From the IMG/VR virus record IMGVR_UViG_3300035501_000578, positions 1-64,000 of that record: a stretch of DNA of 64,000 nucleotides; one strand, 5' to 3'. A program made the translations under genes and the position numbers. This document shows positions 2,775 to 52,834 of the stretch, in pieces. Every line of letters begins with the position of its first letter. The first letter of the stretch is position 1. This stretch comes from a virus. Its lineage: Duplodnaviria; Caudoviricetes. A model generated the notes under the pieces. It was not told the DNA's origin. It was given only the letters and a program-made list of their open reading frames with translations, and did no database searches.

Positions 2775-2836
2775 TTTATTTTTTACCTCCTTTAAAAATT
2801 TTTATATTTTAAATAAAAAAGAGGATAGTATAAATA

Positions 2837-3319: not shown

Positions 3320-3334
3320 AATAATTTTCTCCTT

Positions 3335-6992: not shown

Positions 6993-6996
6993 AACA

Positions 6997-7179: not shown

Positions 7180-7244
7180 TCCTTTTTCTCCATTAAAAAA
7201 AGGAGCAGTATTTCACTACTCCTAATTTTCAAATCTATTTATAT

Positions 7245-9739: not shown

Positions 9740-9751
9740 ACAATCACCTCA

Positions 9752-10414: not shown

Positions 10415-10557
10415 GATTTTACTTCATCCCCTTTCTTAACTATGTAGTTGTATTCCTCCAATGAAATCCTCATTTCATCACGCATCTTTTCAATTTTAGC
10501 AAGTTCGATTTTCCCTTGTGAGTACATTGCTTTTAATGTCTCAATAAAAGTACTCAT
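10411..10557 (-). CDS. XkdX-like small tail protein (48 aa)
   Basis: Below the track cutoff: MSTFIETLKAMYSQGKI...ISLEEYNYIV; ATGA overlap with the next gene. Confidence 0.6.
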   Translation of the reverse strand: MSTFIETLKAMYSQGKIELAKIEKMRDEMRISLEEYNYIVKKGDEVKS

Positions 10558-10558
10558 A

Positions 10559-10885
10559 TTATAAAATCCCCCTTTCTATCATTTCTGTAATTAATTCCTC
10601 ACGTATGGTATCAACAGATTTAAAATCCCTATCTAGCAGATAGTTGTATTCATTTTCTGTAATTTCTTCCATAGTCACAGTTGGGTATATGTCAGGAATA
10701 GGAAATGGTAAAAGAAAACTGGTATTATAAATCTTCTCATTATCAGACATAACGCCTTGGGCATCTTTAATACCACAACGTATAGGAATTTTGTGAGCAG
10801 TTTGAAATTTAACGTATGTAGGAGAATCTTCATAGTGAAGTAAATCAACGACTTTACAATTTCGAATAAACTTAAAATATTTCAT
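10559..10885 (-). CDS. Hypothetical tail-region protein
   Basis: 108-aa ORF, RBS AGGAGG. Confidence 0.55.
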   Translation of the reverse strand: MKYFKFIRNCKVVDLLHYEDSPTYVKFQTAHKIPIRCGIKDAQGVMSDNEKIYNTSFLLPFPIPDIYPTVTMEEITENEYNYLLDRDFKSVDTIREELITEMIERGIL

Positions 10886-10943
10886 TGATACCTCCTTATA
10901 TAAAAAGTACCGTCAGAAAATCCTAACGGTACTTATAAAAATA

Positions 10944-19523: not shown

Positions 19524-20018
19524 TCAATTTTTATTATTTATAAGTTCCTTTAATTCTTCAACCGTTTGAGATAATTCTGAAATTTTCTTTTCGTTCTCTT
19601 CTTCTTTCAGAATTAATTTATTCAGTAAAGAATAATTGTTTTTTTCAAATTCATCATTGTTTAATGGATTTTTTTGGACAGAAAGAGTGAATGGAATTGT
19701 AGATAGAATCGTAGATTCATCTAAATCATAAAGTACAATTTTAAGTTTACATATTCCAGAATAATATAATAAATCTTCATCTAATATTACTGTAACAACA
19801 TTATCAGAATATGTACAGTCTTTAACGATTGAAGATTTATCACCCCTTTGTCCTTCCAATTTAATTTTTATACCATCAGGTATACTGTATAACTCTCCTT
19901 GGTTATACAAAATAAACTCAACAGAACGTGAATTTTTATCACCTTGTTGAGCCTTAATTACTTCGTAAAAAGTAGGAGAGTATAAATCTATAGATATTTG
20001 TTTAATAACTGTGTCCAA
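19524..20018 (-). CDS. BppU-family baseplate upper protein N-terminal domain protein
   Basis: AQQGDKNSRSVEFILY motif. Confidence 0.75.
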   Translation of the reverse strand: MDTVIKQISIDLYSPTFYEVIKAQQGDKNSRSVEFILYNQGELYSIPDGIKIKLEGQRGDKSSIVKDCTYSDNVVTVILDEDLLYYSGICKLKIVLYDLDESTILSTIPFTLSVQKNPLNNDEFEKNNYSLLNKLILKEEENEKKISELSQTVEELKELINNKN

Positions 20019-31300: not shown

Positions 31301-34300
31301 GCATTAGCAGCTTCCTGACAATCTGCCATAGAAGATTCTGAACTTCCCAAGAGTTCTTCAAAGTCTTTCCAACTATCTAAGCCACGAACTGTTGCGTCAA
31401 AACCGGAGAGAGTATCAGCATCTATAAATCCATCAGATGATTTTGTAGCGAGTGCATCCGACATTGCAGATATTTCTTTGCTGAGAGAAGACAACTGTGA
31501 AGAAGAACTTTGGAGTTCATTTATTTTAATTATAGCCTCGGAAGCACTTAATCCTATTTGATTAAGGAACGTATCTGAACCATCTAATTTATTAAATGTT
31601 TCTTCTGTTAATCGTCCTGCTTCGGCGAGGTCTTCTAGTTCACTCTTTAAATTTTTGAGAGTGTCATCTTCTGGATCATCAAGAGCTGCCCAAGCGTCTT
31701 CGAAGGAATCATAAGTAAACGTTTCTAAAGTGTTTTTTGCTTCCTGTAAAGCAGCATTGTAATCATCGACTGATAATACAACATTATCTATATTTTGTTC
31801 CGTGTCTAAATAATACTGTGCTTGCAATTCATGAATATTTTCAGCTTCATTAACAGCTTGCTCTATTGCGTCATCACCAGTAAATTCTCCTCCGATTTGA
31901 AGATTCAAATCGTCTTCACGAGTACCGGCAATTACACCTTCTGCATACGATTGTAACTCTTCAGGACTAAGTATGCCTAAATATTCTCCTGTTTCTGGGT
32001 CTGCAATTATTGGAGTAAAATTAACAGCAACAGTTCCATCTTCATTTGAATATGTACTTGAAAATACAGTAGCAGTTCCTTCACCAGCATCCCAACCAGC
32101 TTCATTTAACAAAGAAGTATCAATAGTAGGACGGAGTGTAAGATTAACTGTGCCATCCTTTTCAAGAGATTTCATTTCTTCTTCTACAGTTTGCTTTGTT
32201 TCTTGTGCTGCATCAATTACTTTTTGTTTTTGATTTTCTACCGCCTTTTCAAATTCTGGGGAATCAGCTATTTTAGCGTCTTCTTTATTCAATTGACCCA
32301 CAAAAGAATTAATTGTCTGGTTTTTATTACCAGAAGTAGAATCACTTGCGTTACTATTATATCCTAATCTATCTTTAATTCTTTGTAATTCCGCTTCGTC
32401 CTCATCTGTGTCAAATCCTAGCTTAATTTTTAATTGATTTTTGTCCAAACCAAGAATATCAGCTAGTTGAGAAATATAATCTTCTATTGCTATTATGTTT
32501 TGTTCTAATGATGCATCCTCATCAATAGCAAGCAAATTAGCATATATTTCATCAACTTTAGCCTTATCATCATCAGATAAATCATATAATGATTTTAGAA
32601 TTTCTTCATTAAGAAACGTTATAATGTCATTCTTATACTTCGAAGAAATTACATCTTTATAATCTGCAAAATTAAGATTAGCAACTAAAGCATCGGCTAA
32701 TGCTTTCCCATTAGTAGAAAGATTCTTATAATCTGCTTCGCCAGATAATGCAGTATAAATAGTAGATAATTCATTCTTATAAGCATTATTTATTTCATCC
32801 TCAGAATCAGACATACCAACAGTAAGTTGCTGTATAATATTATCTTTTAATACATCAGAATTAAGATATAATGAATTAATAACTTGTTCATACTGTTCTT
32901 GAGTTATATCATTTAAATCAAGAAAATATTCGTGAGTTAAATCATTATATTCAGTCTTTAAATCAGTACCAAGAGATTCGTTTACTATATCCCTGATATT
33001 ATTCATAAGAATTTCACTATCAGCACCATCATATGTATCAGGTAATGATAGAGTTTTTGAACCTAATTGACCGGCTGCACCTTGTAAATCAGTCACGAAC
33101 ATATTGATAAAAGAATCAAGTTGTTCTATTTTATCTATCTGTGCTTCGGCTGAGTCAATTACATCACTACCACCTCTTGTTTCTTCTTCTATACCAGCAA
33201 AAGTAGTTTTAAGAGATTCCTTACTTTGTTCAGCAACTAATTGCTGTTGTGCTTCAATTAATTGATTTATTTTTTCGGTAGAAGATTCAGCGTTATCACC
33301 TAAATTAAGAATATAGTGTCCCTCATCATCTAATCCGGTTATTAATTCAGGAAATAATTCACCTAATTTATCACTTGATTCAATAAATTCATCATATTCA
33401 TCAGATGATAATTTTACATTTGTATTATTTACAGTATTTATGCCATTTACTAATGAACTATAAGTTTCTATTGCATCGGTAGCAGAAGAGGTTAAATCTT
33501 CTAAGTCTGATTTAGTTTGAGATATTTCACTTCGTGCAGTTTCACCAGCATCAATTATTTCTTGGCGGGCTTCTTCGAGTTTTTTATTATGTTTATTAAT
33601 CGCATAAATAACTCCTGTTATTGCTGATATACCTAAAACTGCCCACCCAATAGGATTAGAAGCTAGAAAAGATTTTATAGAAGCAGTTAATCCTTTAATT
33701 GCCAAAGTAAAACCGCCAGTTGTAGTAGTTGCCGCTGCTTCGGAAGATGTGATAGCATTAGTAGTTGTTACTTGTGCTAATTCTGCTGCGGTTGTTTTGA
33801 GTGTTTCACCGGTTAAACCTTTTTGATATAGAATCGCCTTAATTTGCTCTTCATTAAGAGTAGACTGTGCTACGGCTGTTTTAATGGCTTCGAGTGAATA
33901 TCCTGATGTTGCTTCTGCCAGTTTATGTGATAAAACTGCATTATCAAGTAATCCATTCCCTAATTGACTATTTGTTTTAATTACAGTTTCTATTGTACTA
34001 ATAACATTTAAGGACTCGCCTATAGTTCTTAATTGCTTAGTACAATATATTATAGTATAATAAAAAACAAAATATTAGGAGGGAAAAGATATGACACCAC
34101 GTAATCTAATGGATAAAATCTGTAAAGAGGCAGATGAAAACACAGAATTTTATAAAAAAATTAGTAATGTTGCTGAAAGTAGAGATAAATTAAAATGCAT
34201 AGAACTTCTTATACAACATTATAATTGTGACTTTGATAATGCAAGAATGGTAATAGATTATATTATTGACGGAACTCCATTACCTTCTGACCTTTCACCA

Positions 34301-37300
34301 GCCGAAATTGCTCACAATAACGCAGTAGCACAGGAATGGCAGAATAAACCCAAATGTATTTGTTGCGGCTCAACAAACTTAAAGAAAATATCAGGATTAT
34401 CCAAAGCAGGCTCTGTCGCAGTTTGGGGTATATTCGCTGCTGGAAGAACGTCAAAAACTTGGCATTGTAATAATTGTGGAACGGAGTGGTAATTGTAAAT
34501 ATACTTGAAAACCTTGCGAGGGAGGAGTAACTATGCTCAATAAACAACAAGAAAAAGTATTAAAGTTTTTACTGTCTTTACCGAGAGATATTGATAATAC
34601 TGTAAGTGTCAGCAATAGTATGTGTACAATTCCTTCGAATATATCCGAAACGGAATTTATAACTATACTTAATTCATTAGAGCAGAATGGTTTTCTTAAA
34701 TTAAAATGGATTAACAAGAATCATGATAATCTAAATAATTATGTGACGATAACAATATTAAACGAAAATTACTTCAAAGAAAAGTCTGCCAATAATATAA
34801 AAAATTTAAAAGATAACATTAAATGGCTTATCCCTTTAATTATATCAATTCTTTCTTTGATATGGAATATTTGTAATACTATAATGTACTCATATTTAAA
34901 AGATTTTTTACTTAATAAGTGAGATTAAACTGCAAGTAATCCATATATTCCATATTATATTAACCAAAGAGATTGCTGAAATTATAATCCAAACAGTGTT
35001 TTTCATTGTGTATAATTCCTTTCATTTTTTATTTAATAAATTCTGTAGACTTGGGAATAAAACAGTTCACATGGCATTGTAAAGTAGTAGAGATTTTAAT
35101 AATTCAACAGTTCTAGACAATACAAAAGAGACATCCATAATAGATGTCTCTTTCAAATAGCAAAATAAAAATCATAGTGGGGATTATGCCATCCCAAATC
35201 AAATTAATCATAAACTCTCGAACAGATTATTGCGTGATGTTTATAAGTGTGATATAATCCGCATATCTTAAACATATGGGGGTGTATATATGAGCAAAGT
35301 ACAATTATCAGAAGAAAATCAAAAAATCAAGCAACAATTAATATGGGATTTTAATCGCTCAAAAATAAGTGCTAACAACTTTGATAAAGATATTGTAAAT
35401 TTGATAGCTGAAATGACGACACAAGCACTTCAACTATCACAAGAAAATCATAATCAATAGTATCACTATTTTCCCTTATTTACATACTTTAATGGATTCG
35501 CTACACAGTCTATTACTGTTTGTAAATCGTTAATATTATTTATATTTGTATCGCATACATATTTTGTAATTACATATTCGTACAGTAAATCCAGTAATTC
35601 ATCAGTAATATTTGGATTTATTGTACGAATTTTATCTTTTATCTCTTGAATTTTATCCATTTCTTAATTCCCCCCTTCATTTAATTTTAAAAGAATGATT
35701 TCTAAATTGATTGGTAATGTGAGAGTAGTACACAACAAAAGAAACAGTAATTTAAGGCAAGAAAAAAGAGCAGTTAAATTAACTGCTCATAAAAGTTTAC
35801 CGCAAAAAGCCTTTTTAATTAAAATTTACGTACCGTCCTATATGCTGATATTACACTAGATATAGGCTCTCTATTGGATTAGGGATAGGAATATATAAAG
35901 ACACCTTAGTTGGTGTCTTTTGTAGTTAAAGCATAACTTATTGTTTCTATTATATTTCCTAAATTATCATATATTTCTAATTTTTCAACTAACTTGAAAT
36001 TTTCTATATCTACATAATCCATAAGTGCTGATTGTTTGGATATTAAAACAGTAAGAGGGATATATTTATTATTTTCAAATCTGATGCCAATATTCATACC
36101 ATTATTATTTCCACTGTTATTATAAAGAGTGCGATATAGAATATAATCCATTTCGACATTATTAGTATTTTTCACTTTACCAGAAGGTATATAAAACGCA
36201 GTACCTTTTCTTAAAGTATTATATGTACAAGAAAACATTGCAAGTCTTTTCTTTTGTTTTTTAAATCTTGTTTTGATTGCATCATTAATTTTAAAATCTG
36301 AGAATGATAAACCGCTATCAATTTTTTGGAAGAATTCGCAATTCTTTATATGATTATCTATATGTTGAATACCTAGCATATGATAAATTCCCCATTCTTC
36401 AAATTCTACCGTTATGATAGTATTATCAGAAAAATGATATACAAATTTTCGTGGTAATAAATAAGTACATGAGAAATCTTTATATAGTCCTAACGATATA
36501 TCTTTTAATAATGGTATATTATCTAAGTTTAACAAATCTTCTTTTGAAAGCATCGTTCTTCTCCATATAAAAAGCGTCTAGTATAAAAAACTAGACGCTT
36601 ATAAAACTTCTTAAATTGGACAGCGTCCTGTTTTACAGGCTGTGCTATGGTAGTTTCATGTCCCCCAATAGGGAAGATGAGCTGTCCCATTCACCTTTAC
36701 TTTGGATAAACCAGGCATTTCTCCTAGAAATCACTAGACTTCTTATCTATAATATACACGAATATCGCAGAACATACAATCGAACATATTGTGAATTTTT
36801 TGTTAACAAAATAATTGTTACTTAAATATTCTTATTCAACATTTCTTTAACTTCGTCAAAATTTTTACCGCTTTCCTGAATTAATTCATATAGTTCTTCC
36901 AGCTTGCTCATTTTGATTTGTTCTTCTAGTTCTATTTTTGTTTGCTTTAGTTTGCTGAGTGAATCTTCCATATTATTTATCTCTATAGTTATTTTACTTA
37001 ATTGTTCTTCCAAAGATATATTTTTCTTTCCTCTTGCCATTTTGAATTACTTCCTTATAAATATGATAATGAGAGAGTAGCATATAATATACTATTTTGT
37101 AAATAAAAACAGAACGCAATATACGACAATTATTTTAATACTATAATACATTATATGTGAAAAAACTATGAATAAATAACTAAATAGCTTATGTATTTTT
37201 TATTATATCAAAATATAAATATAACAAATATTTATAAGTTTTTCTCGTTAGACGAAACACTACGTCCAAATACATTACTTAAACTTATTAAAAATCGCAA

Positions 37301-40300
37301 TGTACACTATGCATTATAAGCAGATGCTACATTATGGCTGTAGCCTACTCAAAGGATGGGTATGTCTGTGGGGATTGCTCTCTATACAATTTTAAATTGT
37401 ACAAAATCCTTTATATATACGATTACACTCTAAAAAGAGTGGAGTGCCGTCCTGCTCGTTATCTGTTGTCAATAGCACTTAGGCTTATATATCAGTTCTC
37501 ACCAATTTTCCCGTATGCCAACATAATCAATTTTTTCTACTTTCGTAACCTCATCCGCAAAAATAGGGATTACGGTTTGATATGTATTCCAGTGATAATC
37601 AAAAAGATTACCAGAAGGCTAATTGAACTTAGCCAAACTTTCAAGCATTTACTCCTTCATGTTTAGTTTATACTCCGCTAAAAGTGTTTGCAGAGTCTTA
37701 TTAAAAACTCCATGTATCCATAGACTTGTTATAACGCCATTATGTTATTTTCTTATCTACGATTACCCAATTAAAAACTATAGGCGAGTTTATTAATTTT
37801 TGTCGCTCTAATGAGCCAAGTAAAGTTTTTAACGAACGCTGTTATACCTATTCCGGCAATAACAGTTTTTAATGACAGAAAATTTTCTGCCAAAAATCCA
37901 ACTACTTCTGATAATGTTGTTAAATCGTCAACAGCATCACCAAGAGTACCACGATCTATCATGGACTGAAATGTACCTGTCCACGTTTCTTTCAGTGCAT
38001 TAATTTTATATTCGAGTGAATTTTCAATAATGCTCATTTCGGCATCTGCTGAACCGGCTGCATTTTCCATATTCTCCATTGCTTGTTCTGCTGCTGAGAA
38101 GTTGGTAAGCAATCCGGCTACTACTTGTCCGTTACGCTTTCCGGCTAGCTTTTCTAAGAGTTGAGCCTGGGTTTTGTCGGAAAGGTCTGAATAGATCTCG
38201 GATATCTCTTTTAATCAATCTGTTACTTTCATCATATTTTTTATATGATTACTGACCATATATAAATATGGCGGTATATCATTTCTGGTATACTCTGTGA
38301 TTTCTTTTTAGATTATATTCACATGTTCGGACTGTATATTAACGTTTCCTAAATAGGAGAGCGTAACAACTTCACATAACATATCACTATGCTATGCCCG
38401 CAGTCTCTAGGGATTCTTGATTTAATATTCTAGTTATTTCTTTATTAATTATGTTTTTATATGTATCGTCTTTTACAGACCAATAAGGTATCTCTATATA
38501 ATTATACCCATTATTTATCGCAAAATTTTTCTTTTGATTGTCTTTCCATTTTTGATATTTAAATTCTTCTTCTGGAGTTTTTCCTGATTTTTTCGATTGT
38601 GTTATATGCCATCCACATAATTCATAATGTTGAATACCATGAACTTCAATAATAATTTTTAATTCTTTTATTTCATTATCAAAAGGCATTTTATACCCTG
38701 AAATGGGATTAATTGGTATTATAGAACAATTATATTCATGAAGAACCGTATAACCAAATGTTTCAAGATATAATCTTACTTTTTCTTCTAAGAAAGATTC
38801 CTTTCTTTCTCTCACACAATATATACAATTACGTGAATGATTTGCTGAATAATCAGATATTGTTTGCATATAATCATTATGTTTTCCGGCTCTACATTTT
38901 AACCATACTTTTTCTTTTGAAGAATAAGCATAATCAAAAGGTGTTTTGTCATTTTTATCAGACCAAATATCAAGTATTTCAGGGACTTGACTCCCTAAAC
39001 TATCCAATGGATGTATTAATTTTCTTGAACAATATGGACATGGAGCATCAGCAGAATAATAATTATTTGGATGTGTATAAAAATTATGATATTCTACCCT
39101 TTGACATTTTAAATGTACTTTAACATCATTTGTAGATTTAGATATTTTAAACGGATCAATAGTATTATCATCACACCAATATTTATCAAGCCAATCTTCA
39201 CCATATTTATTGATATTGTATTGTGCAAAAGAATCTTCTTTATAAACAATTTTTGAAACGCAAGCTGGGCATCTTTCACCTCTATAAAAATTATCAGGAG
39301 AAATTAAATAGTCTTCATGATAATTTTTCTCTTGACATTTTATATAAACTTTCTTACCAGAACATTTGTCAAATTCAAAAGGTGACTTGGAATTCTTTTT
39401 AGACCAATAATCATTAATTGCGTTATTTCCGAAATTTTTAATTAAATAATACCCAAATGAATTTATATATTTTTTATATGGATCTTGATTTTTATTTGGA
39501 TTAGTAATGTATTGAATCGGATAAAAATAAGAATATAATTCAAATTTAAACCAATATTTTTTAGCAGTACATTTAGATATGTAATGTATATCGTCATTTA
39601 AAGATTTGTCCCATGCTTCAATCAAATCTTGTCTTTTATTCTCTATACACCATTGGTAAAAAGAATTACATTGTGGACAAATACAATCTTTTGAAAACAC
39701 TAAGTTACTAATACCTTTTTGAAAACTTTCATGAATATTCTTTTTACATTTAAAATAATAATATTTTTTGGTTTTATGTGATATGTCTTTTGGGGATATA
39801 TTATTTTTATCATAATCCCATAATTCTAAATAATTTTCTTTTCCGTTTTCTATACACCAATCGTAAAATGATTTACTTCTTTTTCTTAACATAATTAAAT
39901 TCCTTTCATTTACTAAATTTTCGCATTAAAAAAGAGCAGTCACTTATTTGACCACTCTTGCATCGCTTTCGCTAATTTTTCATTTTTTATATACACCCAA
40001 AACATCTTTTTTGTTTCTGGATGTAATCCAACAATTTCATATTTTATCCCTTTAGAATAAAAAAAATCTCTCATAGGAATAGAATAACATGGGAATAAAT
40101 TTGAATTTTTCAATTAAATCAAGCCTTTCCTCGGTCTGAACTATCTCTAGCCTTTAACCGATATAGTTGTTATCAATGTGTTTACGCACAAAGCATATAG
40201 CTTTCGCTATATGGAGACATATAGTTTATCTCATATGTAGATTTGTATGTCTGTTTCGTTGAATCAGTAAATAAACTAATTCCTCCAGGTGTTTTTGCAG

Positions 40301-42498
40301 TTTTTGTTAAATCAGCAATATCGCCTGAAATATTTTCAAGGTCTTCTGATAATTCTTCGGTTTCTTCATCATACATTGTATTACTTTCGGCAACCGACAA
40401 CCTACATACCATATTTTAATATGGCGATCAGTCATTTCTGGCTGATTCTCACATTTCTTTATATTGGGATTATAGTGTGAGATTGGACTGTATATTCATC
40501 CTAAAAAATAGGAGATTAACTTCAACATATATGTTTCCATATATATCCCGCAGTCTCTGAGGATTCTTATAACATAGATTACATTATATGTTACAAATCT
40601 TTCCTAAGTCTCTGATGTCCCTCATCCTTTGACTTATATAGTTAATATCCGTATTTATTTTAAGCGCATACGGCACATACATTACTGTATATGGAGGCAG
40701 TGATGAATTTACCTCGAATACGCATAGCCAGTGTTTTAAAAGCTGTACCAGTACTCTCTGCATTTCTGGTGATCTCAACGGAAGCACTCTCAAGGGCTAT
40801 TGTTTGCTCAAGCGAGTTGTTTGCTTCAGCCATAGCAGCAGAAGAACGTGTCAACATATCAACTATTTCTTCGTTGCTAGTCGCTGCTGTGTTTCCGATG
40901 ATATTTATATTGTCTAATATTTCACGTTTAACATCATCTACTTCAATTCCAAAGGCTTTCATGGTTGAAACCATTCCGTCCGTAGCCGTATCTACATCCA
41001 TCCCCGGAGAGATACTAGCAAACTGAGAACTTAATTTAGCCATCTCAGTAGCGGCTTCACCACTTGAATATCCAAGCCTAGACCAAGCACTTGCCTGATC
41101 AATAATTTCTTCAGTGGTTACACCCATTTGTTTTGCCACATCATTTGCAGAGTAGTAGAAATCATTTAACTCCGATGTGGACATAGTAGTAGTTTTCTGC
41201 AAGTCAACTAAAGCTGTATCCAAGTCAACTACTGTGGTTATAGCTTCCTTAACATATCCAATTGCCCGATACCAACTAAAATACATACTAACAAGCGATG
41301 AAATATTATTATATAGAGCCTTACTCTTAAATATATCAATCAGCCGTTTACCTTCATTACCAGCCGCCTTTTCAGCAGAAACAATGCCGTAAAAACCAGA
41401 CCTTATTTCTTCAAATGGTGCATCAGAACCCATTGTCTTTAACATACTAATATATGTTTCAATTTGTTGTTGCGCTTCTTTAGAAAAATTAGTATTCCTG
41501 CTTAGAGTATCCTGCATTTTATTTATAAATTTAAGTCTGCTCTCTAATGTAGAACCTTTATCTCCAGCAGTCATTGATTTAAAGATCTGTAATAATTCAT
41601 TACCTCTAGTTTGTGCTGTTTTTAATTGGTCGAGTTCAGTGTCAGTAATTAAATCAATAGGTTTAGAAGTAATTTTACGAATAGTTTCATTTATCTGATT
41701 TAATTTATCTAAAGATGCTTGATAATTACTGTTTTGATTTTCTGCCTTCGGTTTTGCCGAATATGTATTATAAGCATTTTGAAATTTTTTAAGAGAAGAT
41801 GAAGCTTCTTCAATTGCTTGAGCTTCTTTTGTTACGTTATCAGAAGTAGTAGTAGCAGATGATGATACATTATTATTAGCACTGGCAAATTGTTCTTTTG
41901 CACTAGATGCGTTTTTAGTTTGCTCTGCAAGATTACCCATAGCTTCAGCAGTAGCGTTTACACCAGATGTGTTTTCAGATGAAAGATTCGTTTTATTACC
42001 ACTTACTTTACTCTGAGCATCCGATAAATCCTTAGTAGCACTAGCAAGACCTTCTGTAGCTTTTTGTGCATTTTGAATCTGACTGACATTAGCATTTGCA
42101 TTCTTTCCAATGTTGCCAAAATCCGTATTGACTTCTGTAATATGTTTCGTCAGTGTAGTCAAAGAAGAGTCAATATTTTGGATAGAAGACAATAGACTTT
42201 TCGCACCTGAATTACCGTCTATCTTACCAAAAGCAGTACTTAAACTCTGTACCTCTGTTGTAATTGATTCTAGCTGTCCAGCTAATTTCTCAAACTGTTT
42301 AAAATCACCGGTATTATTGCCAAGACTTTTTAACATTTTATCAAGATTGGCAATAACACTTTCCAATTGTTCTTTGTTTACACCAATATCAATGGTATAT
42401 TTTTTATTATTTACTTCTCTTTCTAAAGTTTCTAATTGTTTTTGAGCTGTACTAATATCTAACTCTATTTTTTTCTGCCATGCAGATATTCCACTCAT
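25337..42498 (-). CDS. Tape measure protein in five segments, about 3021 aa; join(42498-40711,40373-40228,38215-37819,34035-28567,26602-25337)
   Basis: PhageMin_Tail-like LDTALVDLQKT region; junctions MRIRG|YDEET, TYEI|LKEIS, KNFT|QLRTI and SKD|LHDYQ all in frame (total 9066 nt). The third junction is inferred from guide pairing and is the least certain. Confidence 0.8.
26603..28566 (-). mobile_element. Group I intron (1964 nt) in TMP with endonuclease ORF in the P9 region
   Basis: P1 GAT|TAA/TTAGTC, TGCTGGAAAACCC, core TTCAACGACCAT and ATGATATGGTCT, terminal G before TTACATGAC. Confidence 0.85.
26619..28088 (-). CDS. Intron-encoded endonuclease: six Zn-ribbon repeats plus DUF559/Vsr-like nuclease
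   Basis: Repeats Y.NA.TPILH.C...W...P.N.L.G.GCP.C; PFDFY...IAIEYDGKQH. Confidence 0.85.
   Translation of the reverse strand: MGVTKTHEEYVAELAIKNPDIEVIGEYSGVHNKILHRCKKDDYIWEVTPDNILRGKGCPKCSKHIKFTHEDYVNELALTHPNIQVMEEYINNNTPIMHKCLIHNIEWKSVPATVKNGYGCKECVKEYMREKRVKSRDEYIEQLNLINPNIMLIGDYINAHTPTLHRCLIDGYEWMLKPNNALSGKGCPNCYGNIKKNQLEYVEELSLKNPNLEVLEDYINAKTPILHRCKRHNIKWKISPDNALHGYGCKECLREKIGEKNSKTHEQYVKELKEINPNIIVLGEYIDAKTPILHRCLIDGYEWMVRPDNVLCGTGCPKCAGNIKKTHEEYVYELSCINPYIKVIEKYIDSVTPILHECLIDGYQWYAAPTNLLSGCGCPQCHESSGERQIRTWLEKHDVLYDFQKRFSDCKDINSLPFDFYLPDYNIAIEYDGKQHFEPIEYFGGVVAFERTVKHDNIKNNYCKNNGISLLRIPYNKNVEEELNNFLFI
34033..34061 (+). promoter_or_regulatory. Sigma-A promoter of the 34091 cargo gene, overlapping a divergent minus-strand TATAAT (34054-34049)
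   Basis: TTGCTT-N17-TATAAT then AGGAGG RBS; ATTATA-G-TATAAT dyad. Confidence 0.65.
34091..34492 (+). CDS. Cargo: Zn-ribbon protein
   Basis: PKCICCGSTNLKKIS...KTWHCNNCG; own promoter and RBS. Confidence 0.8.
   Translation: MTPRNLMDKICKEADENTEFYKKISNVAESRDKLKCIELLIQHYNCDFDNARMVIDYIIDGTPLPSDLSPAEIAHNNAVAQEWQNKPKCICCGSTNLKKISGLSKAGSVAVWGIFAAGRTSKTWHCNNCGTEW
34533..34922 (+). CDS. Cargo: winged-helix-like protein with C-terminal transmembrane helix
   Basis: LNSLEQNGFL motif; WLIPLIISILSLIWNI; RBS GGAGG. Confidence 0.7.
   Translation: MLNKQQEKVLKFLLSLPRDIDNTVSVSNSMCTIPSNISETEFITILNSLEQNGFLKLKWINKNHDNLNNYVTITILNENYFKEKSANNIKNLKDNIKWLIPLIISILSLIWNICNTIMYSYLKDFLLNK
34908..35006 (-). CDS. Cargo: 32-aa hydrophobic peptide
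   Basis: Hand translation MKNTVWIIISAISLVNIIWNIWITCSLISLIK; GAAAGGA RBS. Confidence 0.5.
   Translation of the reverse strand: MKNTVWIIISAISLVNIIWNIWITCSLISLIK
35124..35153. terminator. Bidirectional-type intrinsic terminator inside the cargo
   Basis: AAAAGAGACATC-cataata-GATGTCTCTTT. Confidence 0.6.
35290..35460 (+). CDS. Cargo: 56-aa hypothetical protein
   Basis: MSKVQLSEENQKIK...; promoter TTGCGT-N17-TATAAT at 35230-35258 and GGGGG RBS. Confidence 0.6.
   Translation: MSKVQLSEENQKIKQQLIWDFNRSKISANNFDKDIVNLIAEMTTQALQLSQENHNQ
35466..35660 (-). CDS. Cargo: 64-aa hypothetical protein
   Basis: AGGGGG RBS; convergent with 35290-35460. Confidence 0.55.
   Translation of the reverse strand: MDKIQEIKDKIRTINPNITDELLDLLYEYVITKYVCDTNINNINDLQTVIDCVANPLKYVNKGK
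35762..35788 (-). terminator. Intrinsic terminator downstream of the PBECR4-like gene
   Basis: GAGCAGTT-aattt-AACTGCTC-TTTTTT on the minus strand. Confidence 0.7.
35906..36553 (-). CDS. Cargo: PBECR4-like (Barnase-EndoU-ColicinE5/D-RelE superfamily) putative RNase toxin
   Basis: Y.F.....I.VEF....IYHMLGIQH pattern and C-terminal YIPLT strand; recognised by motif only. Confidence 0.55.
   Translation of the reverse strand: MLSKEDLLNLDNIPLLKDISLGLYKDFSCTYLLPRKFVYHFSDNTIITVEFEEWGIYHMLGIQHIDNHIKNCEFFQKIDSGLSFSDFKINDAIKTRFKKQKKRLAMFSCTYNTLRKGTAFYIPSGKVKNTNNVEMDYILYRTLYNNSGNNNGMNIGIRFENNKYIPLTVLISKQSALMDYVDIENFKLVEKLEIYDNLGNIIETISYALTTKDTN
36569..36600 (-). terminator. Terminator between the cloverleaf RNA and the nuclease gene
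   Basis: AAGCGTCTAG-loop-CTAGACGCTTTTT immediately upstream of the RBS. Confidence 0.7.
36618..36688 (-). ncRNA. Candidate cloverleaf-shaped antitoxin RNA
   Basis: 7-bp closing stem GGACAGC/GCTGTCC enclosing three arms; promoter TTGTAT-N17-TATATT at 36779-36751. Confidence 0.45.
36822..37040 (-). CDS. Cargo: 72-aa basic-tailed coiled-coil protein
   Basis: MARGKK then coiled coil ending LEELYELIQESGKNFDEV; AAGGAAG RBS. Confidence 0.7.
   Translation of the reverse strand: MARGKKNISLEEQLSKITIEINNMEDSLSKLKQTKIELEEQIKMSKLEELYELIQESGKNFDEVKEMLNKNI
37240..37818 (-). ncRNA. Large (~580 nt) structured RNA at the 5' end of the TMP interruption, containing the guide
   Basis: More than ten hairpins found by eye plus long-range complementarities; GC-richer than flanks; no credible sense ORF. 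Confidence 0.65.
38216..40227 (-). mobile_element. Group I intron (2012 nt) in TMP with endonuclease ORF
   Basis: P1 GAGAT/GTCTC, core TAGAGACTGCGGG and AATATACAGTCC, terminal G before ATTAAAAGAG. Confidence 0.88.
38387..39892 (-). CDS. Intron-encoded endonuclease: treble-clef/Zn-ribbon repeats plus DUF559/Vsr-like nuclease
   Basis: W...KN...P.......S.KKV..KC...H...CP.C repeats; PFDN...IIEVHGIQHY; C-terminus overlaps P7. Confidence 0.85.
   Translation of the reverse strand: MLRKRSKSFYDWCIENGKENYLELWDYDKNNISPKDISHKTKKYYYFKCKKNIHESFQKGISNLVFSKDCICPQCNSFYQWCIENKRQDLIEAWDKSLNDDIHYISKCTAKKYWFKFELYSYFYPIQYITNPNKNQDPYKKYINSFGYYLIKNFGNNAINDYWSKKNSKSPFEFDKCSGKKVYIKCQEKNYHEDYLISPDNFYRGERCPACVSKIVYKEDSFAQYNINKYGEDWLDKYWCDDNTIDPFKISKSTNDVKVHLKCQRVEYHNFYTHPNNYYSADAPCPYCSRKLIHPLDSLGSQVPEILDIWSDKNDKTPFDYAYSSKEKVWLKCRAGKHNDYMQTISDYSANHSRNCIYCVRERKESFLEEKVRLYLETFGYTVLHEYNCSIIPINPISGYKMPFDNEIKELKIIIEVHGIQHYELCGWHITQSKKSGKTPEEEFKYQKWKDNQKKNFAINNGYNYIEIPYWSVKDDTYKNIINKEITRILNQESLETAGIA
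40374..40710 (-). mobile_element. Group I intron (337 nt, no ORF) in TMP
   Basis: P1 GAGGT/GCCTC, P10 TTCATCA/TGATGAA, core TCAGAGACTGCGGG and AATATACAGTCC, terminal G. Confidence 0.9.
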
Positions 42499-42511
42499 TG
42501 ATTAGATCACC

Positions 42512-42970
42512 TCACTTTAAAATTTTATCAACTTCTTTGTCTATAATTTTATTAATGTAACCACCAAAACCACTTTCAATGTCTGCATCAACATACATAT
42601 AAGGAGGTAGTGACTGTTTCATCATCCACCTGCCATTACCATGTTCGCCACCCATAAAGAAAAAATCAAAAGCAGTACTTGGTTGTAATTTATTACCACC
42701 AATCCAACTAGGGTATGAATTCATATAACCTGAATCGACAGACATAGAAATAACATTTCCTTTACCACTTGTTCTTGCACTTTTAAGAACATTCATAAAA
42801 TTATTTGTACGTTGATATGCTTGTGGATTATAATCGTTGTAATAATCAACCAAGGAATATCTCACAGACTCTTTGAATAATTTATTTACCTCTGGTGCAA
42901 TTTTTTCTGCAATATGTTCTTTAAGGTCTATTAATTGTTTGTTCCAATCATCTGTTAAATTTCCACTCAT
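42512..42970 (-). CDS. Conserved phage tail-region protein (possible tail completion)
   Basis: Start MSGNLT with AGGAGG RBS; YNPQAYQRT motif. Confidence 0.55.
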   Translation of the reverse strand: MSGNLTDDWNKQLIDLKEHIAEKIAPEVNKLFKESVRYSLVDYYNDYNPQAYQRTNNFMNVLKSARTSGKGNVISMSVDSGYMNSYPSWIGGNKLQPSTAFDFFFMGGEHGNGRWMMKQSLPPYMYVDADIESGFGGYINKIIDKEVDKILK

Positions 42971-43142
42971 CCTATACCTCCTTTCAAATTGCGTATAATC
43001 AAAATAGGAGAGCAGTAGCAACTACTCTCCAAAGAAAAAGTCCTGTAAGTTTTGACACTCACAGGACTTAATATGAGGAATTTTATATATCATTTTTATT
43101 TTTTAATTTTGCCATTAAAAGCATTAATTTATTCACTATATA

Positions 43143-43325
43143 CTACATAATAATCTCATAAATAGTACCTTCCGCATCTTTCGGAGCTTTAGTTCCCCAG
43201 CCATTCTTTTTCCTTAATTCATAATAATCACCGCAATCAGTAGCGATTAGTTCTTCGCCTTTATTAATATTTATTTGATATTTTCCATCATTTACTTCTA
43301 TGTCTTCTAAAAAACGTGCTTTCAT
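43143..43325 (-). CDS. Small hypothetical protein
   Basis: 60 aa, AAAGGA RBS. Confidence 0.55.
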   Translation of the reverse strand: MKARFLEDIEVNDGKYQININKGEELIATDCGDYYELRKKNGWGTKAPKDAEGTIYEIIM

Positions 43326-43354
43326 AATTTATCCTTTCAATTCTTTCCTGATCG

Positions 43355-43606
43355 TTAAAATGTATATTCCCTTGTTACAAACAAAGGTACAAATCCACTT
43401 GAATCACCATTATATTCTCTACGCTCATAATTTTCTAAAAACATTTTAGCAGTTTTTATACTGTTGTATTGCATTGCACATTTAATATCTGCACCAATTG
43501 TGTCATCCAAATATAGAAATACTGTTTCAGAATTGTTATCCATACGAGCACCCTTCGGTGTTGTCACTAAACGAACTAAGACATAATATCTATCTGTTAT
43601 CTTCAT
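43355..43606 (-). CDS. Small hypothetical protein
   Basis: 83-aa ORF in operon. Confidence 0.5.
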   Translation of the reverse strand: MKITDRYYVLVRLVTTPKGARMDNNSETVFLYLDDTIGADIKCAMQYNSIKTAKMFLENYERREYNGDSSGFVPLFVTREYTF

Positions 43607-43611
43607 AATTC

Positions 43612-43875
43612 TTATTCCACCTTAACCTTTATTTCATACTCATCATTTAATACAAGCATCAATTTAGCAATTCTACTAGCATTTGAACCAAAATCATGAT
43701 TTATAGCTCTTGCAAGTTCCAATTCTGGATCGTCCCATACGCCTAAATATTTACTTGGAATAGGATTACCTGGAATATAATTATTCAGCCATTCGTTGTA
43801 ATCATTGTATGTATTAACAAATCTTTTAGTATTAGGTATTAGATTTTCAGATGTAGGAATTAACCATTTCTCCAT
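43612..43875 (-). CDS. Small hypothetical protein
   Basis: 87-aa ORF in operon. Confidence 0.5.
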   Translation of the reverse strand: MEKWLIPTSENLIPNTKRFVNTYNDYNEWLNNYIPGNPIPSKYLGVWDDPELELARAINHDFGSNASRIAKLMLVLNDEYEIKVKVE

Positions 43876-43876
43876 A

Positions 43877-44473
43877 CTATTTAACCACCCTTAACCCACC
43901 ATTAACTGCATCCTTCAACTTATCTATTGTTTCATCATCTAACTCTAACTCAGCAATATTCTTTCCTAGAGTTTCAAGTGTTGGTTGCAATACAGCACTT
44001 ATCAGACTTGAAAATCTTGTTACCTGACTAGAAATAAAAGAGTGTGTAGATAATTCATTTTCCAAAATGTCATCAACCGCCATATTAAGTAGTGTTTGAA
44101 ATTCCTTAACTTGTTCTACTGGAAGTAATTCAATAATTTGTCTGATTAAATTATTCTCATCTAATAATTCATATTCCTTTGTAGTGTTGTTGAAATCAAT
44201 ATCTATATTTGTAAAAAGGTCAATTATATTAAGCGTGAATAGAAGATAGCGGGCTGTCGAATTTACTTTAATACCTATTTCTTTATTATCTTTGTCGTAT
44301 TCGTGGGTAGTGGTTTTAGCAATTCTATTTGCTATATTAACCTTATCTGTAAATGGGATATAAGACTTGATTGAGAGAGTGTCTTCAATATACTTTCCCT
44401 TTAATTTATCTGATACTACTTTATTATATCCTTCAACAAATTCTGTTACTTTCATATTTATTTTTCCTTTCAA
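43877..44473 (-). CDS. Putative tail assembly chaperone
   Basis: Between tail tube and TMP; IKSYIPFTDK motif; the true start may be MKVTEF. Confidence 0.5.
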   Translation of the reverse strand: MKGKINMKVTEFVEGYNKVVSDKLKGKYIEDTLSIKSYIPFTDKVNIANRIAKTTTHEYDKDNKEIGIKVNSTARYLLFTLNIIDLFTNIDIDFNNTTKEYELLDENNLIRQIIELLPVEQVKEFQTLLNMAVDDILENELSTHSFISSQVTRFSSLISAVLQPTLETLGKNIAELELDDETIDKLKDAVNGGLRVVK

Positions 44474-44480
44474 TCCTTAA

Positions 44481-44708
44481 TTATATTTCAACATCATAAT
44501 TACACCATTTCTGGTATAACTCTTTGGTTTTTTCTTTCTCAAAAATCATTACGATAATTTTCCGATCATTTCGTTCATCATAACTGGTATAAATGTCCAT
44601 AGGATAAACATCATTTACCAAGTAGAATAGTTGCTGTTTTTGGTTTACAATTCGCACACAATCTGTTGAATTGTACTCAATCCCAGCCAAATTCGATTTT
44701 ATATTCAT
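44481..44708 (-). CDS. Small DUF5659-like protein
   Basis: RIVNQKQQLFY...P.DI...IVMIFEKEKTKELYQKW. Confidence 0.5.
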   Translation of the reverse strand: MNIKSNLAGIEYNSTDCVRIVNQKQQLFYLVNDVYPMDIYTSYDERNDRKIIVMIFEKEKTKELYQKWCNYDVEI

Positions 44709-44806
44709 AAGTTTCTCCTTTTAATCCTCTACGTAAAAAATAGGGGAACACAAAATTGAATAGTTCAATCCTGTAATTCCCCTATATGGTTTTTACAATA
44801 AAAATA

Positions 44807-45274
44807 CTATTCAACATCGTCAACTGTCTTCTTTTTAGACCTTCGATAATTTCTTGGTTTTTCTTCAATATTTTCTTCTGATTGCTCGATTTTATCTGAA
44901 ATTTCATTAGTAGAAGTAGTAGTATCAACTTTCTCTATAATTTCCACAGATTCTTTCTCTACTTTATCCGGTATTTCATCTATAACAGGAGTAGGTATTT
45001 CAATTGTTTCAGCGTAAATCTTTGCAATAGAATTTTTGTAGCTTTCTCCAAACATTTCAGATTTAGATAAATCTAATTTGTCTAGCTGTACTTTCGCTTC
45101 ACTTGCAGTAATTCGTCCGTCTTCAAAAGAAGATGTCGCATTGTAAATATCCTTGCAGTTTTCAGAACAGAATGCAAAACGCCATGTTTCGATTGGGTTA
45201 TAACCCTTACATCTAGGACAGTATTTGTAACTCACTCCGTCTACACTACAAGTTCTTAATTTTCCGTCAGCCAT
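44807..45274 (-). CDS. Zn-finger hypothetical protein
   Basis: RTC...YKYCPRC...FCSENC. Confidence 0.65.
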   Translation of the reverse strand: MADGKLRTCSVDGVSYKYCPRCKGYNPIETWRFAFCSENCKDIYNATSSFEDGRITASEAKVQLDKLDLSKSEMFGESYKNSIAKIYAETIEIPTPVIDEIPDKVEKESVEIIEKVDTTTSTNEISDKIEQSEENIEEKPRNYRRSKKKTVDDVE

Positions 45275-45342
45275 TCAAAATTTCCTCCTTAAAATAGGGC
45301 AGTGCATTAGACACCGCCCCTAATAAATAATTCAGAATTGAA

Positions 45343-46167
45343 TTATGCTGCTTCCTCTTCTTCGTCAACGAAGTAGACATCAACAAGAACCTTCTTTGTT
45401 GAGCAAGTATTAGCAAGGATAGCACCCTTATAATCCATTGTCTGTGAATCTCCACCCTGAAGAGCAAGAGATACTTCTGGACTAGGAATAAATTCTTCAA
45501 TATGAATTACAACAGCTCTGAAGCTTTCCTTATCACAAGGGTCAACAGCAAGAGCTTTAAAGTATAATTCATGTGACTTAGGATACTTGTCAGCAGAAAT
45601 ACTAATCTTAGCACCTGATTTAACTTCCTTTGTATATTTTACAAAGTATTCAACTTCTTCTGAATCTGTAGGTGGTGTGAATATAGCACTAGCTACAGTA
45701 CCGCTATCTTCACTAGCTTTAGTAGTTGCAATAGCATATTCAGTAGCAGATGCAGATGAGCCAAGTTTGTAGGTTTTACTTGTATCAAGAGCACCATTGT
45801 AAATAGCACTAACAGTGAGAGTGCCATCAACATAACCAGTAATGTCGAGTGTATCACCAGCAGATACGGTCTGTATTATTGGCATCTGAATAGTATTTTC
45901 GTCAGTGGCAATTTCAGCGTCAGCACCAGAAATAGCCTCGATAACGGCAAGGTTAATAAATGCATTAGTAGCATTAACTTCTGCTGTCTTACCTGAGTAC
46001 TTTCTATATACAAGGTTTCCGTCCTTATCTTTAATATCAGTAGAGTCAGCAGTTATATCAATTGTAGCTTCATTAAGCTGTGTAAGAGCATAAAGTGGTG
46101 TGCCATTCTTCTTAGCACCATAACCGAACTGTAAATGGTCAATGATAACGTCTCCAAGCTTAAACAT
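45343..46167 (-). CDS. Major tail tube protein
   Basis: Start MFKLG with AGGAGG RBS; highly expressed codon style; position; flanked by terminators. Confidence 0.7.
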   Translation of the reverse strand: MFKLGDVIIDHLQFGYGAKKNGTPLYALTQLNEATIDITADSTDIKDKDGNLVYRKYSGKTAEVNATNAFINLAVIEAISGADAEIATDENTIQMPIIQTVSAGDTLDITGYVDGTLTVSAIYNGALDTSKTYKLGSSASATEYAIATTKASEDSGTVASAIFTPPTDSEEVEYFVKYTKEVKSGAKISISADKYPKSHELYFKALAVDPCDKESFRAVVIHIEEFIPSPEVSLALQGGDSQTMDYKGAILANTCSTKKVLVDVYFVDEEEEAA

Positions 46168-50569: not shown

Positions 50570-52834
50570 TTATTTCATCTTAATTTCGCCAAATACTTCG
50601 TTGATAACAACACCGATACCTTCCTGATATGCAAGTTCTGCATCAACGGTCATATCCTTCTTTAGACCATCCATACCTGTCTCGTAGTAAATAACGTCTC
50701 CCTCATTTACTCTTTTAATTGGAGGTCTATCAGGATTAATTGGCATTACAAAAATCTTCTTGTTATCATCTGCTGAGAATACGCTTTCTCTTGTACCAGC
50801 CTTATTAACACGGCTAAGAGCAAGGCAGTCATATCCTTCCCAAGAGCCAAGAAGACCATTCTGATGTCTTTCATCCTTCATTGCATCAGAGAACATATTA
50901 TAGTTTACAGTATTCTGAAGCTTCTGAATTGCGGTACGAGTACCAACAAGTAATACATCTTTACCAGTTGCGGCTTTAACAGCTTCAATATGCTCGATAA
51001 TGTCATCCTTTGTAGCTTCTGAAACGGCTGTTTCAAGAACCATATCAGTAGGGAGAGATTCATCCATAGACATCCAAGCTGTAAAGAGTGCACCATATCT
51101 GTACTGCTCAATAGCAGTGTACATCTTGTCAACTAATCCTGCAAAATCAACCTTACCTGTCTGGAACAGAGTAAAGTCGGTATATACTTTAATAGTATAC
51201 CAAGAAGTCTCGATAGAGAATGACTTACCTGGCTTTACGGACTGTCTTACACTTTAATGTTTAACTTATATTATTCCCCAATATTTAAAAATTTCCAATG
51301 ATAGCCACCACATGTCTTGCGTTCACCACGGCATACTTTTAATATACCAGAACTGTCTAAGGATAAATCTTTACTTGCTTCAGTGGCATCATTAAATTGT
51401 TTATTTAATTCCAAACAAAACACAGGAGTAGTATTCCTTCTAAATGAACGTATACCTTTACTATGTTCACTCATCTTTTTCTTTGATTCTTCGGTATGAT
51501 GTCTTCCATACATACCATTGTTTTTACCAATTATTTTTTCTTTTATTTCTGGATTTGTCCATTGATTTAATGCATCAATTCGTCTGACTTCTTTTAAATT
51601 TGAATGGCAATAAGATTCTTTAATAGAATTACTAAGCTTTTTTCTTGACTCTTTGGATAGTGTATTTTTTATAAATTGACCACCTGATTTTAAATTATAA
51701 CCGCAATCTCTATCCAAAGTATTATATAGTTCTATATAATAAATTTCCCTCTGATCAAGTTCGTTTATTTCGCAAGTGTCTAATATATAAAAACTAAAAC
51801 TATCTTCACCATATTTATTCCAAGCTTTTTGTAAATAATCATTATCATGATTTCCGTGATTTAATTCACCTTTATGTCTTCTCCATCTATCATAAATATT
51901 TTTAGATTGACCAATATATTTTTTGTTTGTTACGGTATTTTCAATGCAATAAATTCCAGAAATTATTTCATTTTGCATTTACTCATCTCATTTCTGTTAT
52001 TATTTTGGGAAATAATTTTATAGGGTCGCTACGCCCTGTTGAGTTTAATTGTCCAGATTAAACTCCACTTACTTTCATAAGTAGAACAGACTATATCATC
52101 ATCCAATAAAGGATGTGTACCATTTCCATTTAAGGGGGTTTCACCCACTCACTTGAGCCGTACTTCTATTGCAGATTTCTCTGCCGATGGAATAGTCGTT
52201 GAGCCTTACCTTTCGGTCTTGGTTGCTGATTGCCCATTAAAAAAGAACAGGGGATTTAACCTCGTTCTCATACAAATAATTTTTTCTGCTTTCGCCACAT
52301 TCACGTTTATACCATTTAAGGTATTGCGTTGTAGTTTATTTGCCTTTAGGGTTTTCCAGCAGTTAGATACATATTTTTTCATACAGCTTACGCTATACGG
52401 ATACTGTAAGAGTCAATATCATGGTGGTTTCCAGCGAATCTGGATACAGTAAGAAGAGAATTATCATCAACGAAAAACTCATTTGCATCGCCATCGTTGA
52501 TGTTGATTTCCTCAACATACTCCATAAATCTTGCATTTGCACTAGACCAGCCAGAGTTCATTTTATCTACGATTACATCCTCAATAAGAGTTGCAATTTC
52601 CTTATTATGATCTCTCCAAGCCTGTCTACGCTGCATCTTAGTTGCGGTCTTAAAATTAATACCTAATACTTTATCAAACTGATTTCTAAGAATAGTCTGA
52701 GTATCTTCTTTAGAATACTTTTCATATACTCTATTGCTTGCATCTAACATAAGTGAGTTAAACTCAAGCATATTTTCATATTTGTTATCAAACTGTGCTA
52801 CAGTATTTGCAGCAAAACATGTAATATCTCTCAT
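50570..52834 (-). CDS. Major capsid protein, 366 aa after splicing; join(52834-52416,51251-50570)
   Basis: Spliced FAGNHHDI|VRQSVKPGKSFSIET in frame (419+682=1101 nt); position after protease and decoration genes. Confidence 0.88.
51252..52415 (-). mobile_element. Group I intron (1164 nt) in the major capsid gene
   Basis: IGS TCTTACAGTATC pairs 12/12 with ligated GATAT|TGTAAGA (U.G at the site); core TCAACGACTA and ATGATATAGTCT; terminal G. Confidence 0.93.
51271..51978 (-). CDS. Intron-encoded GIY-YIG endonuclease (NUMOD3/NUMOD1-like)
   Basis: SGIYCI...KYIGQS, GRHHTEESKKKMS. Confidence 0.92.
   Translation of the reverse strand: MQNEIISGIYCIENTVTNKKYIGQSKNIYDRWRRHKGELNHGNHDNDYLQKAWNKYGEDSFSFYILDTCEINELDQREIYYIELYNTLDRDCGYNLKSGGQFIKNTLSKESRKKLSNSIKESYCHSNLKEVRRIDALNQWTNPEIKEKIIGKNNGMYGRHHTEESKKKMSEHSKGIRSFRRNTTPVFCLELNKQFNDATEASKDLSLDSSGILKVCRGERKTCGGYHWKFLNIGE

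Follow-up and report, generated by a model that had tools for sequence, protein, structure and literature searches.

A putative group I-type intron with a long guide helix and variable cargo in a phage tape-measure gene

The DNA analyzed here, designated the window, comprises the first 64,000 nucleotides (positions 1 to 64,000) of the IMG/VR virus record IMGVR_UViG_3300035501_000578 (Duplodnaviria; Caudoviricetes), which extends over 111,955 bp. The minus strand of the window contains the tape-measure gene of a gut phage in four pieces separated by three gaps (Table 1), and the third gap is occupied by the element under study, a putative group I-type intron harboring additional genes. A PHROG search aligned the four pieces with consecutive positions of the tape-measure family phrog_4211. 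Pieces 1 to 3 are contiguous, in a single frame, in the IMG/VR relatives L001, L002, and L006 to L011, and L002 is also uninterrupted across the third junction, where the residues at the start of exon 4 (RTIGES or RTLGES) are conserved. These observations support the conclusion that the four pieces form one gene, with a joined coding capacity of ca. 2600 amino acids. The two parts flanking the third gap had been assigned to one gene in an original prediction made from the sequence alone, and the consecutive family positions and contiguous relatives bear out this assignment. Relatives of exon 3 displaying more than 63% identity were not found in IMG/VR or in metagenome contigs, and a megablast search of the region against phage records returned no match.

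The first two gaps are ordinary group I introns. Intron 1 (337 nt) is canonical-looking and devoid of any open reading frame; it is preceded by an exon ending in U and ends in G. Intron 2 (2012 nt) has the same terminal bases and harbors a gene for a treble-clef zinc-finger or homing-endonuclease protein.

Gap 3 extends from 37818 to 34036 (3783 nt). The upstream frame reads ...AFVKNFT, the last codon being ACT (37821-37819), and continues through WLIRATKINKLAYSF to a stop codon. The downstream frame is open from 34074 and resembles a tape measure from QLRTIGES onwards (CAA at 34035), in frame with the upstream part. A guide internal to the gap consists of a 22-nt P10 strand followed by the P1 strand GGUAA (37767-37763). 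The P1 strand pairs with the exon end UUACU, leaving a U.G pair at the 5' junction. The P10 strand (37789-37768) pairs with the first 22 nt of exon 4 (34035-34014) through 21 Watson-Crick pairs and one G.U pair (95% over 22 nt by blastn). The energy of the guide/target duplex was -32.0 kcal/mol, and none of 2000 shuffled targets gave a value as low (mean of -5.7, standard deviation of 2.2). The gap position, the in-frame resumption, the 27-nt pairing with the joined flanks, and the terminal G that had been predicted were all recovered in the sequence. The guide also follows the P1/P10 logic attributed to it, with U.G at the junction, a terminal G, and the 3'-exon complement adjoining the P1 strand.

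Many related phage contigs also have an insert at this site, directly after the residues KN(F/V)(G/T/A/D). Both ends of the insert were fixed in 11 cases, the window and 10 other phage contigs, for insert lengths of 960 to 5553 nt. In all 11 cases the last base is U for the 5' exon and G for the insert; the U.G wobble at the junction is kept, and the neighboring P1 pairs change in a compensatory manner. A hairpin follows the 5' junction. The guide lies 37 to 61 nt into each insert and comprises, in this order, the complement of the 3' exon, the G facing the junction U, and the complement of the end of the 5' exon. The first of these elements is matched to the initial 12 to 22 nt of the 3' exon, the window having a helix of 22 bp and the relatives helices of 12 to 19 bp.

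Comparison of the guides and targets defined about six classes (the window with L043 and L045; L048; L040; L030; L003 with L004 and L020; L018 with L019). Guides pair with their own 3' exon with energies of -12 to -32 kcal/mol, versus about -1 to -16 for pairs formed across classes. Two double changes, affecting guide and exon together, distinguish L048 from the window and preserve the pairs. In P1, UUUACU/GGUAA of the window is replaced by UUUGCU/GGCAA in relatives and by UCGGU/GCCGA in others. This covariation by class indicates that the pairing is selected at the RNA level. In agreement with this conclusion, the non-Watson-Crick pairs within P10, as read from the printed duplexes, are mostly G.U on the sense RNA (7 G.U versus 1 A.C), which fits selection on RNA rather than a DNA inverted repeat. 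Covariation of guide and target in homologues was a test named in the original prediction, and the compensatory changes provide a positive answer.

The window and all relatives examined at the 3' end have an antisense gene, which starts ca. 50 nt away from the 3' splice site and encodes a protein of ca. 130 residues with a helical N-terminal portion and a CxxC...HCNNC zinc ribbon. It is the sole gene in the shortest inserts (ca. 1 kb; L030, L040, L045, and L048), which still have a P10 of 14 to 19 bp. Thus, the long P10 is not tied to large cargo or to terminators; it goes with the presence of an antisense gene between the core and the splice site.

Sequence conservation among the relatives begins at the 5' junction and is lost at about 37240, beyond which unrelated cargo is found. 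The conserved segment was compared with closer ribozyme relatives recovered from metagenome contigs (L036, L039 to L043, L045, L048, L029, and L030). Its helices could be arranged in the canonical group I order, including the crossing of P3 and P7 that forms a pseudoknot, with P3 to P8 and two 3' hairpins placed. Compensatory changes across 10 relatives were observed in P1, P1ext, P2, P2a, P3, P7, P8, Px, and Py. For example, P3 alternates between GAAGGA/UCCUUU and GGAGGA/UCCUCU, and P7, kept as AC(A)UA/UAGU, covaries with GGACA/UGUUC in L029. P4 is UGCUUG/CGAGCA, and members that have diverged in other parts retain identical core motifs. At the level of sequence comparison, the anatomy of the element and the covariation of P1, P10, and most core helices are established. 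It had been predicted that no P7 core would be recognizable; a core is recognizable in the first ca. 580 nt and a P7 helix exists, the part of the claim that stands being the atypical guanosine-binding pair discussed below. Candidate distant partners of P7 identified by a duplex scan (36777-36768 and 36745-36735) were rejected since they lie beyond the end of conservation at 37240 and no equivalent complement is found in the relatives. The sequences GUCU (37725-37722) and GUC (37253-37251), likewise rejected, belong to P2 and to hairpin Py, respectively.

A blastn search with positions 37830-37240 detected a 39-nt block of the ribozyme that is 90 to 100% identical in Herelleviridae phages, where split genes for the tail tube, portal, and tail lysin contain it in gaps lacking annotation. 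The gap in the portal gene of Bacillus phage LY2 matched the Rfam model Intron_gpI (85 bits, E = 5e-21), and the shared block corresponds to the P5 extension of this intron. Two transposase genes and a RAGATH-18 RNA lie downstream of the LY2 portal intron, which is therefore an IStron, combining a group I ribozyme with insertion-sequence (IS) genes. Seven of the Herelleviridae-related introns were used to build two covariance models, R1 (P6-P7-P8-P9) and R2 (P3-P4-P5abc-P4'). R2 matched gap 3 at 37609-37456 (42.2 bits, E = 2e-7), in comparison to 110 and 66 bits for two canonical introns of the window, and also detected the same-site inserts of L018 and L019 (E = 4e-4) and of L020 (E = 0.01). 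This comparison of sequences establishes that the P4-P5 region is homologous to group I introns.

In Bacillus phage vB_BceH_LY2 (L022, 2376-4160), the portal gene is annotated as split, with "transposase" genes in between. Staphylococcus phage DELF3 (L024, ca. 1890-4000) similarly contains an IStron, with "transposase" genes between the parts of a split tail-lysin gene. In Staphylococcus phages vB_SscM-1, Quidividi, and 184DA (L021, L023, and L025), two to three group I cores are present in tandem in a single gap, after a truncated tail-tube open reading frame.

Taken together, the comparisons make it likely that gap 3 is a group I-type intron, the third of the gene, which carries cargo and whose distant 3' splice site is found by the guide. 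We infer that splicing occurs, and in cis. In the proposed layout, the ribozyme would occupy the first ca. 580 nt and the remaining 3.2 kb would be cargo, located between the ribozyme and the 3' splice site and read through by the late transcript. P1 would form between the exon end UUACU and GGUAA, the U.G pair marking the cut site. Once the first cleavage had taken place, an extended P10 would form between the first 22 nt of exon 4 and the 22 nt of the guide located just 5' of the G facing the junction, so that exon 4 and the remote terminal G would be brought into the active site. Across the same-site inserts, this would place the 3' splice site 0.4 to 5 kb beyond the core. The joined exons would read ...KNFT-QLRTIGES, with an RNA junction in which ...AACUUUACU is followed by CAAUUAAGA... 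(...UUUACU-CAAUUA...).

Several observations weigh against this proposal. The guanosine-binding position of P7 has G37366 opposite G37305 in the window and in eight of the nine nearest relatives; the canonical G-C pair is found in L029, the only such case among the nine, and in the same-site inserts of L018, L020, and L003. Catalytic competence is consequently not readable from the sequence, and the element is classed as a group I-type variant rather than as a canonical member. R1, which finds the canonical introns, found nothing in gap 3 even with the filters off. A permissive scan with Rfam Intron_gpI (RF00028) gave no match in gap 3 at E <= 10, and Rfam scans of 28000-46000, of 37200-37840, and of the L003 and L018 cores detected no group I or group II match. 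This model is a weak test, the canonical-looking intron 1 scoring only 16 bits (E = 0.08; 13.6 bits with R1), in comparison to 85 bits for LY2. The 22-bp P10 is far above the optimum of ca. 6 bp (PMC6155759) and might slow exon release. Finally, three sense-strand hairpins resembling intrinsic terminators are present within the intron (1.1 expected), which would reduce the amount of full-length precursor.

The atypical P7 pair could mean that the element does not splice at all, being a ribozyme relic with a broken guanosine-binding site, the tape measure then being made as two proteins and the guide/target pairing serving another role, such as masking a downstream start or regulation by the transcript of the antisense gene. 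The lack of an Rfam Intron_gpI match is consistent with this possibility, as is the observation that the last triplet of 8 of the 11 inserts is AUG or GUG, in the frame of exon 4 (L004, L018, L019, L030, L040, L043, L045, and L048; the last three nucleotides of the window insert, 34036-34038, are AAG). However, no ribosome-binding site precedes the terminal AUG, and intron 1 also ends in AUG, indicating that these triplets are probably an intron trait (perhaps P9.0) rather than start codons. A relic would also not account for the covariation of P1, including U.G at the junction, along with that of P10, for the invariant terminal G, for the invariant core motifs, or for helices that compensate, and the same-site inserts of L018, L020, L003, and L029 keep the G-C pair of P7. 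We therefore regard the absence of splicing as unlikely, while granting it some weight. A similarly low probability is assigned to a different reading of the G opposite G, according to which the subclade of the window has a remodelled active site and may depend on another factor. The antisense zinc-ribbon protein, another arrangement for binding the nucleophile, or assembly in trans via the 22-bp guide may provide the substitute. If true, the remodelled site would define a natural class of cargo-bearing ribozymes with programmable long-range choice of the 3' splice site.

Splicing in trans would provide a different role for the guide. According to this model, a 5' transcript containing exons 1 to 3 and the ribozyme ends at an internal terminator, and the guide duplex joins the two RNAs. 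The three sense-strand terminators are in line with this scenario, and P10 is much longer than required for splicing in cis, engineered trans-splicing ribozymes being known to gain from a stronger P10 (PMC6155759). In contrast, relatives of ca. 1 kb containing the antisense gene alone keep a P10 of 14 to 19 bp, and promoter-like sequences are not in excess in the region (30 versus 28.1 in shuffles). A phage group I intron that naturally splices in trans is not known to us, and we consider this scenario improbable. A DNA-level element, either an invertible segment or a transposon whose terminal inverted repeats would measure 22 bp, was suggested by the 21/22 inverted repeat that guide and target form around the insert. 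However, one arm of this repeat is conserved host coding sequence (RTIGES), and the other is located 30 nt inside the insert rather than at its end. In addition, transposase and recombinase genes were not found in Pfam and PHROG scans, the mismatches are strand-asymmetric, with G.U on the sense RNA, and inversion would not restore the frame. This alternative is very unlikely. Ribosome hopping, as in T4 gene 60, from ACT 37821-37819 to ACT 34041-34039 had been offered as an alternative in the original prediction. The matched codons do exist in the window, together with a hairpin after the take-off codon, but they are not kept: in the relatives, the codon that ends the exon (GCU, GGU, or GAU) is not repeated ahead of exon 4. 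Together with the distances to be bypassed, 960 to 5553 nt containing translated genes and stop codons, this renders hopping almost inconceivable.

The antisense gene of the window encodes a protein with more than 230 homologues, some of them labelled only as hypothetical proteins of Lachnospiraceae. No Pfam family was assigned to this protein, and its predicted fold (pLDDT 73) gave no match in the PDB at E <= 0.001. A fragment that is 94% identical to the C-terminal third of the gene was found in another phage record of 138 kb (L017, 4012-4161), where it adjoins a second, full zinc-ribbon gene (2208-2813). Tape-measure exon 3 was not found in the L017 record. The fragment hints at a recent exchange of cargo segments.

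The original prediction of a cargo site inside an essential gene is borne out by the intervening DNA, which holds variable genes between the ribozyme and the 3' splice site. In the window, no confident family was assigned to the cargo open reading frames by Pfam, PHROG, or PADLOC, a 72-residue frame giving a sub-threshold PADLOC row (PbeC). The relatives contain other genes. The cargo of L004 encodes an NsnB-like ATPase (9814-11460; PADLOC NsnB, E = 8e-62) and a helix-turn-helix (HTH) protein, and that of L020 an NsnA/GmrSD_N-like protein (9084-10070; PADLOC NsnA, E = 2e-32). L043 carries genes for a MazF/PemK-like toxin (6675-7370) and a LytTR response regulator, and L018 a gene for a Bro-N protein. 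The NsnA, NsnB, and PemK/MazF matches indicate that genes of the anti-phage-defense type ride in the tape-measure introns of relatives. A structured RNA of ca. 200 nt lies directly upstream of the PBECR4-like nuclease gene of the window. It comprises a helix, GGACAGC/GCUGUCC, closing around two hairpins, and a strong terminator, a layout reminiscent of type III toxin-antitoxin pairs. The RNA is not a tRNA and had no match in Rfam, and a blast search with 36555-36835 was uninformative.

Introns are also present elsewhere in the window. Two of them are canonical group I introns related to the Herelleviridae/IStron type, one directly downstream of the tape-measure stop codon, inside the next gene (66 bits with R2 and 48 bits with R1), and the other at 52058-52373 (110 and 45 bits, respectively). 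Weaker R1 matches on the minus strand (E of 0.002 to 0.2), at 15224-15342, 14350-14480, 19848-19961, and 6256-6361, suggest additional group I introns and an unusually intron-rich phage.

Table 1. Features of the split tape-measure gene and of its introns in the window.
Feature	Coordinates	Strand	Evidence or remark
Tape-measure piece 1	42498-40711	-	PHROG alignment
Intron 1	40710-40374	-	junction from L001/L002
Tape-measure piece 2	40373-40228	-	PHROG alignment
Intron 2	40227-38216	-	exon-final U 40228; terminal G 38216
Gene for 501-aa treble-clef zinc-finger/homing-endonuclease protein in intron 2	38387-39892		Pfam/PHROG scans
Tape-measure exon 3 (132 aa; last base U 37819)	38215-37819	-	phrog_4211 positions 815-951
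Group I-type ribozyme, P1-P9	37818-37240	-	R2 match, fold, covariation
P1ext	37816-37805	-	compensatory changes
Internal guide (P10 strand, then P1 strand)	37763-37789	-	pairing
P2	37761-37755/37725-37719	-	compensatory changes
P2.1	37696-37672	-	fold/alignment
Loop-loop complement, 7 bp	37689-37683 with 37261-37255	-	alignment
P3	37658-37653/37356-37351	-	minimum-energy fold; compensatory changes
P4	37647-37642/37458-37453	-	minimum-energy fold
P5 extension and P6	within 37818-37240	-	fold/alignment
P7	37366-37361/37309-37305	-	compensatory changes
P8	37350-37318	-	compensatory changes
Px	37304-37271	-	compensatory changes
Py	37269-37248	-	compensatory changes
Variable cargo region of intron 3	34533-37040	both
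Cargo open reading frame	36822-37040	-
Structured RNA and terminator	36572-36800	-
PBECR4-like nuclease gene, 215 aa	35906-36553	-	Atlas lead, very high score
Cargo open reading frame	35466-35660	-
Cargo open reading frame	35290-35460	+
Cargo open reading frame	34533-34922	+
Sense-strand terminators	36600-36572, 35788-35768, 35155-35123	-	3 found, 1.1 expected
Antisense gene, 133 aa (helical N-terminal part, C-terminal CxxC...HCNNC zinc ribbon)	34091-34492	+
Last intron base G (omega-G position); 3' splice site 34036/34035	34036	-	same in all 11 inserts
P10 target, first 22 nt of exon 4 (codons QLRTIGES)	34014-34035	-	pairing
Tape-measure exon 4 (1823 aa and stop)	34035-28564	-	reading frame and relatives
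Canonical group I intron	28191-28502	-	R2 and R1
Canonical group I intron	52058-52373	-	R2 and R1

The element has a wide distribution among contigs of gut (Lachnospiraceae-associated) phages and accounts for "split" tape-measure annotations. If splicing is confirmed, the intron would constitute a self-removing landing pad of up to 5.5 kb in an essential phage structural gene, through which accessory genes could be swapped without cost to the tail. The genes concerned are that of the PBECR4-like nuclease in the window and those of Nsn-type defense proteins, a MazF-like toxin, Bro-N, and regulators in the relatives. The guide helix of 12 to 22 bp would then be a natural answer to the choice of a splice site located kilobases away from the ribozyme, a problem also faced by designers of trans-splicing and RNA-circularizing ribozymes.

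Phage group I introns bearing homing-endonuclease genes include those of T4 (td, nrdB, and sunY) and of SPO1. As in these introns, and in intron 2 of the window, an open reading frame is tolerated inside an intron of an essential gene. In contrast, intron 3 has no nuclease gene recognizable as such in family scans, its open reading frames lie on both strands and are accompanied by their own terminators, and its ribozyme is complete before the cargo rather than split by it.

A close parallel is provided by IStrons (CdISt1, BcISt1, and relatives), whose cargo is likewise flanked by a group I ribozyme on one side and the 3' splice site on the other (PMC4227781). In both cases a complete ribozyme occupies the 5' end, kilobases of genes precede the 3' splice site, and the P5 extension of the window is nearly letter-for-letter identical to those of the phage examples LY2 and DELF3. 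The contents differ: transposases of the IS200/605 and IS607 families, ORF A/ORF B, and TnpB were not found in the window cargo by Pfam and PHROG scans, and no Rfam transposon-RNA match (RAGATH-18 or omega RNA) was found in the window. The cargo consists instead of variable accessory genes, and the conserved gene is antisense. IStrons loop out their cargo by an intron-internal inverted-repeat stem of 6 to 34 bp surrounding the open reading frames (PMC4227781), whereas the long helix of the window is formed by the guide and the 3' exon itself. The window does contain AU-rich repeats at 34041-34066 and 37130-37155 (26 nt, 81%), of which many similar pairs exist in such AT-rich DNA.

In Bacillus cereus-group prophages, three sites of tape-measure genes are occupied by group I introns, and one of these sites accommodates different introns that are adapted to it (PMC2504315). 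These introns (TMP-IVS1, TMP-IVS2, and TMP-IVS3a/b) share with those of the window the host gene, the presence of several introns per gene, and the adaptation, via P1 and P10, of different cores to a single site. They differ in being small, with or without a homing-endonuclease gene, and in having ordinary P1 and P10 helices, cargo and an antisense gene being unreported (PMC2504315). The candidate new splicing system that had been proposed for gap 3 is accordingly better described in terms of known elements, the ribozyme being group I-type and related to phage group I introns and IStrons, and introns of tape-measure genes having already been published (PMC2504315). The combination of a conserved antisense gene, defense-like cargo not derived from transposons, and a P10 of 12 to 22 bp was not described in the literature searched. 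Natural P10 helices are described as weak, involving nucleotides 2 to 8 of the 3' exon, and the optimum in engineered ribozymes is ca. 6 bp (PMC6155759), so that a helix of 12 to 22 bp is unusual. Close counterparts of the guide are found in engineered trans-splicing group I ribozymes, in which a longer guide placed beside the P1 strand base-pairs with the RNA that is to be ligated, and a strengthened P10 defines the 3' splice site (PMC6155759, PMC3895272). These ribozymes are designed and act in trans, whereas the helix of the window is natural, belongs to a family of 12 to 22 bp, and most likely acts in cis.

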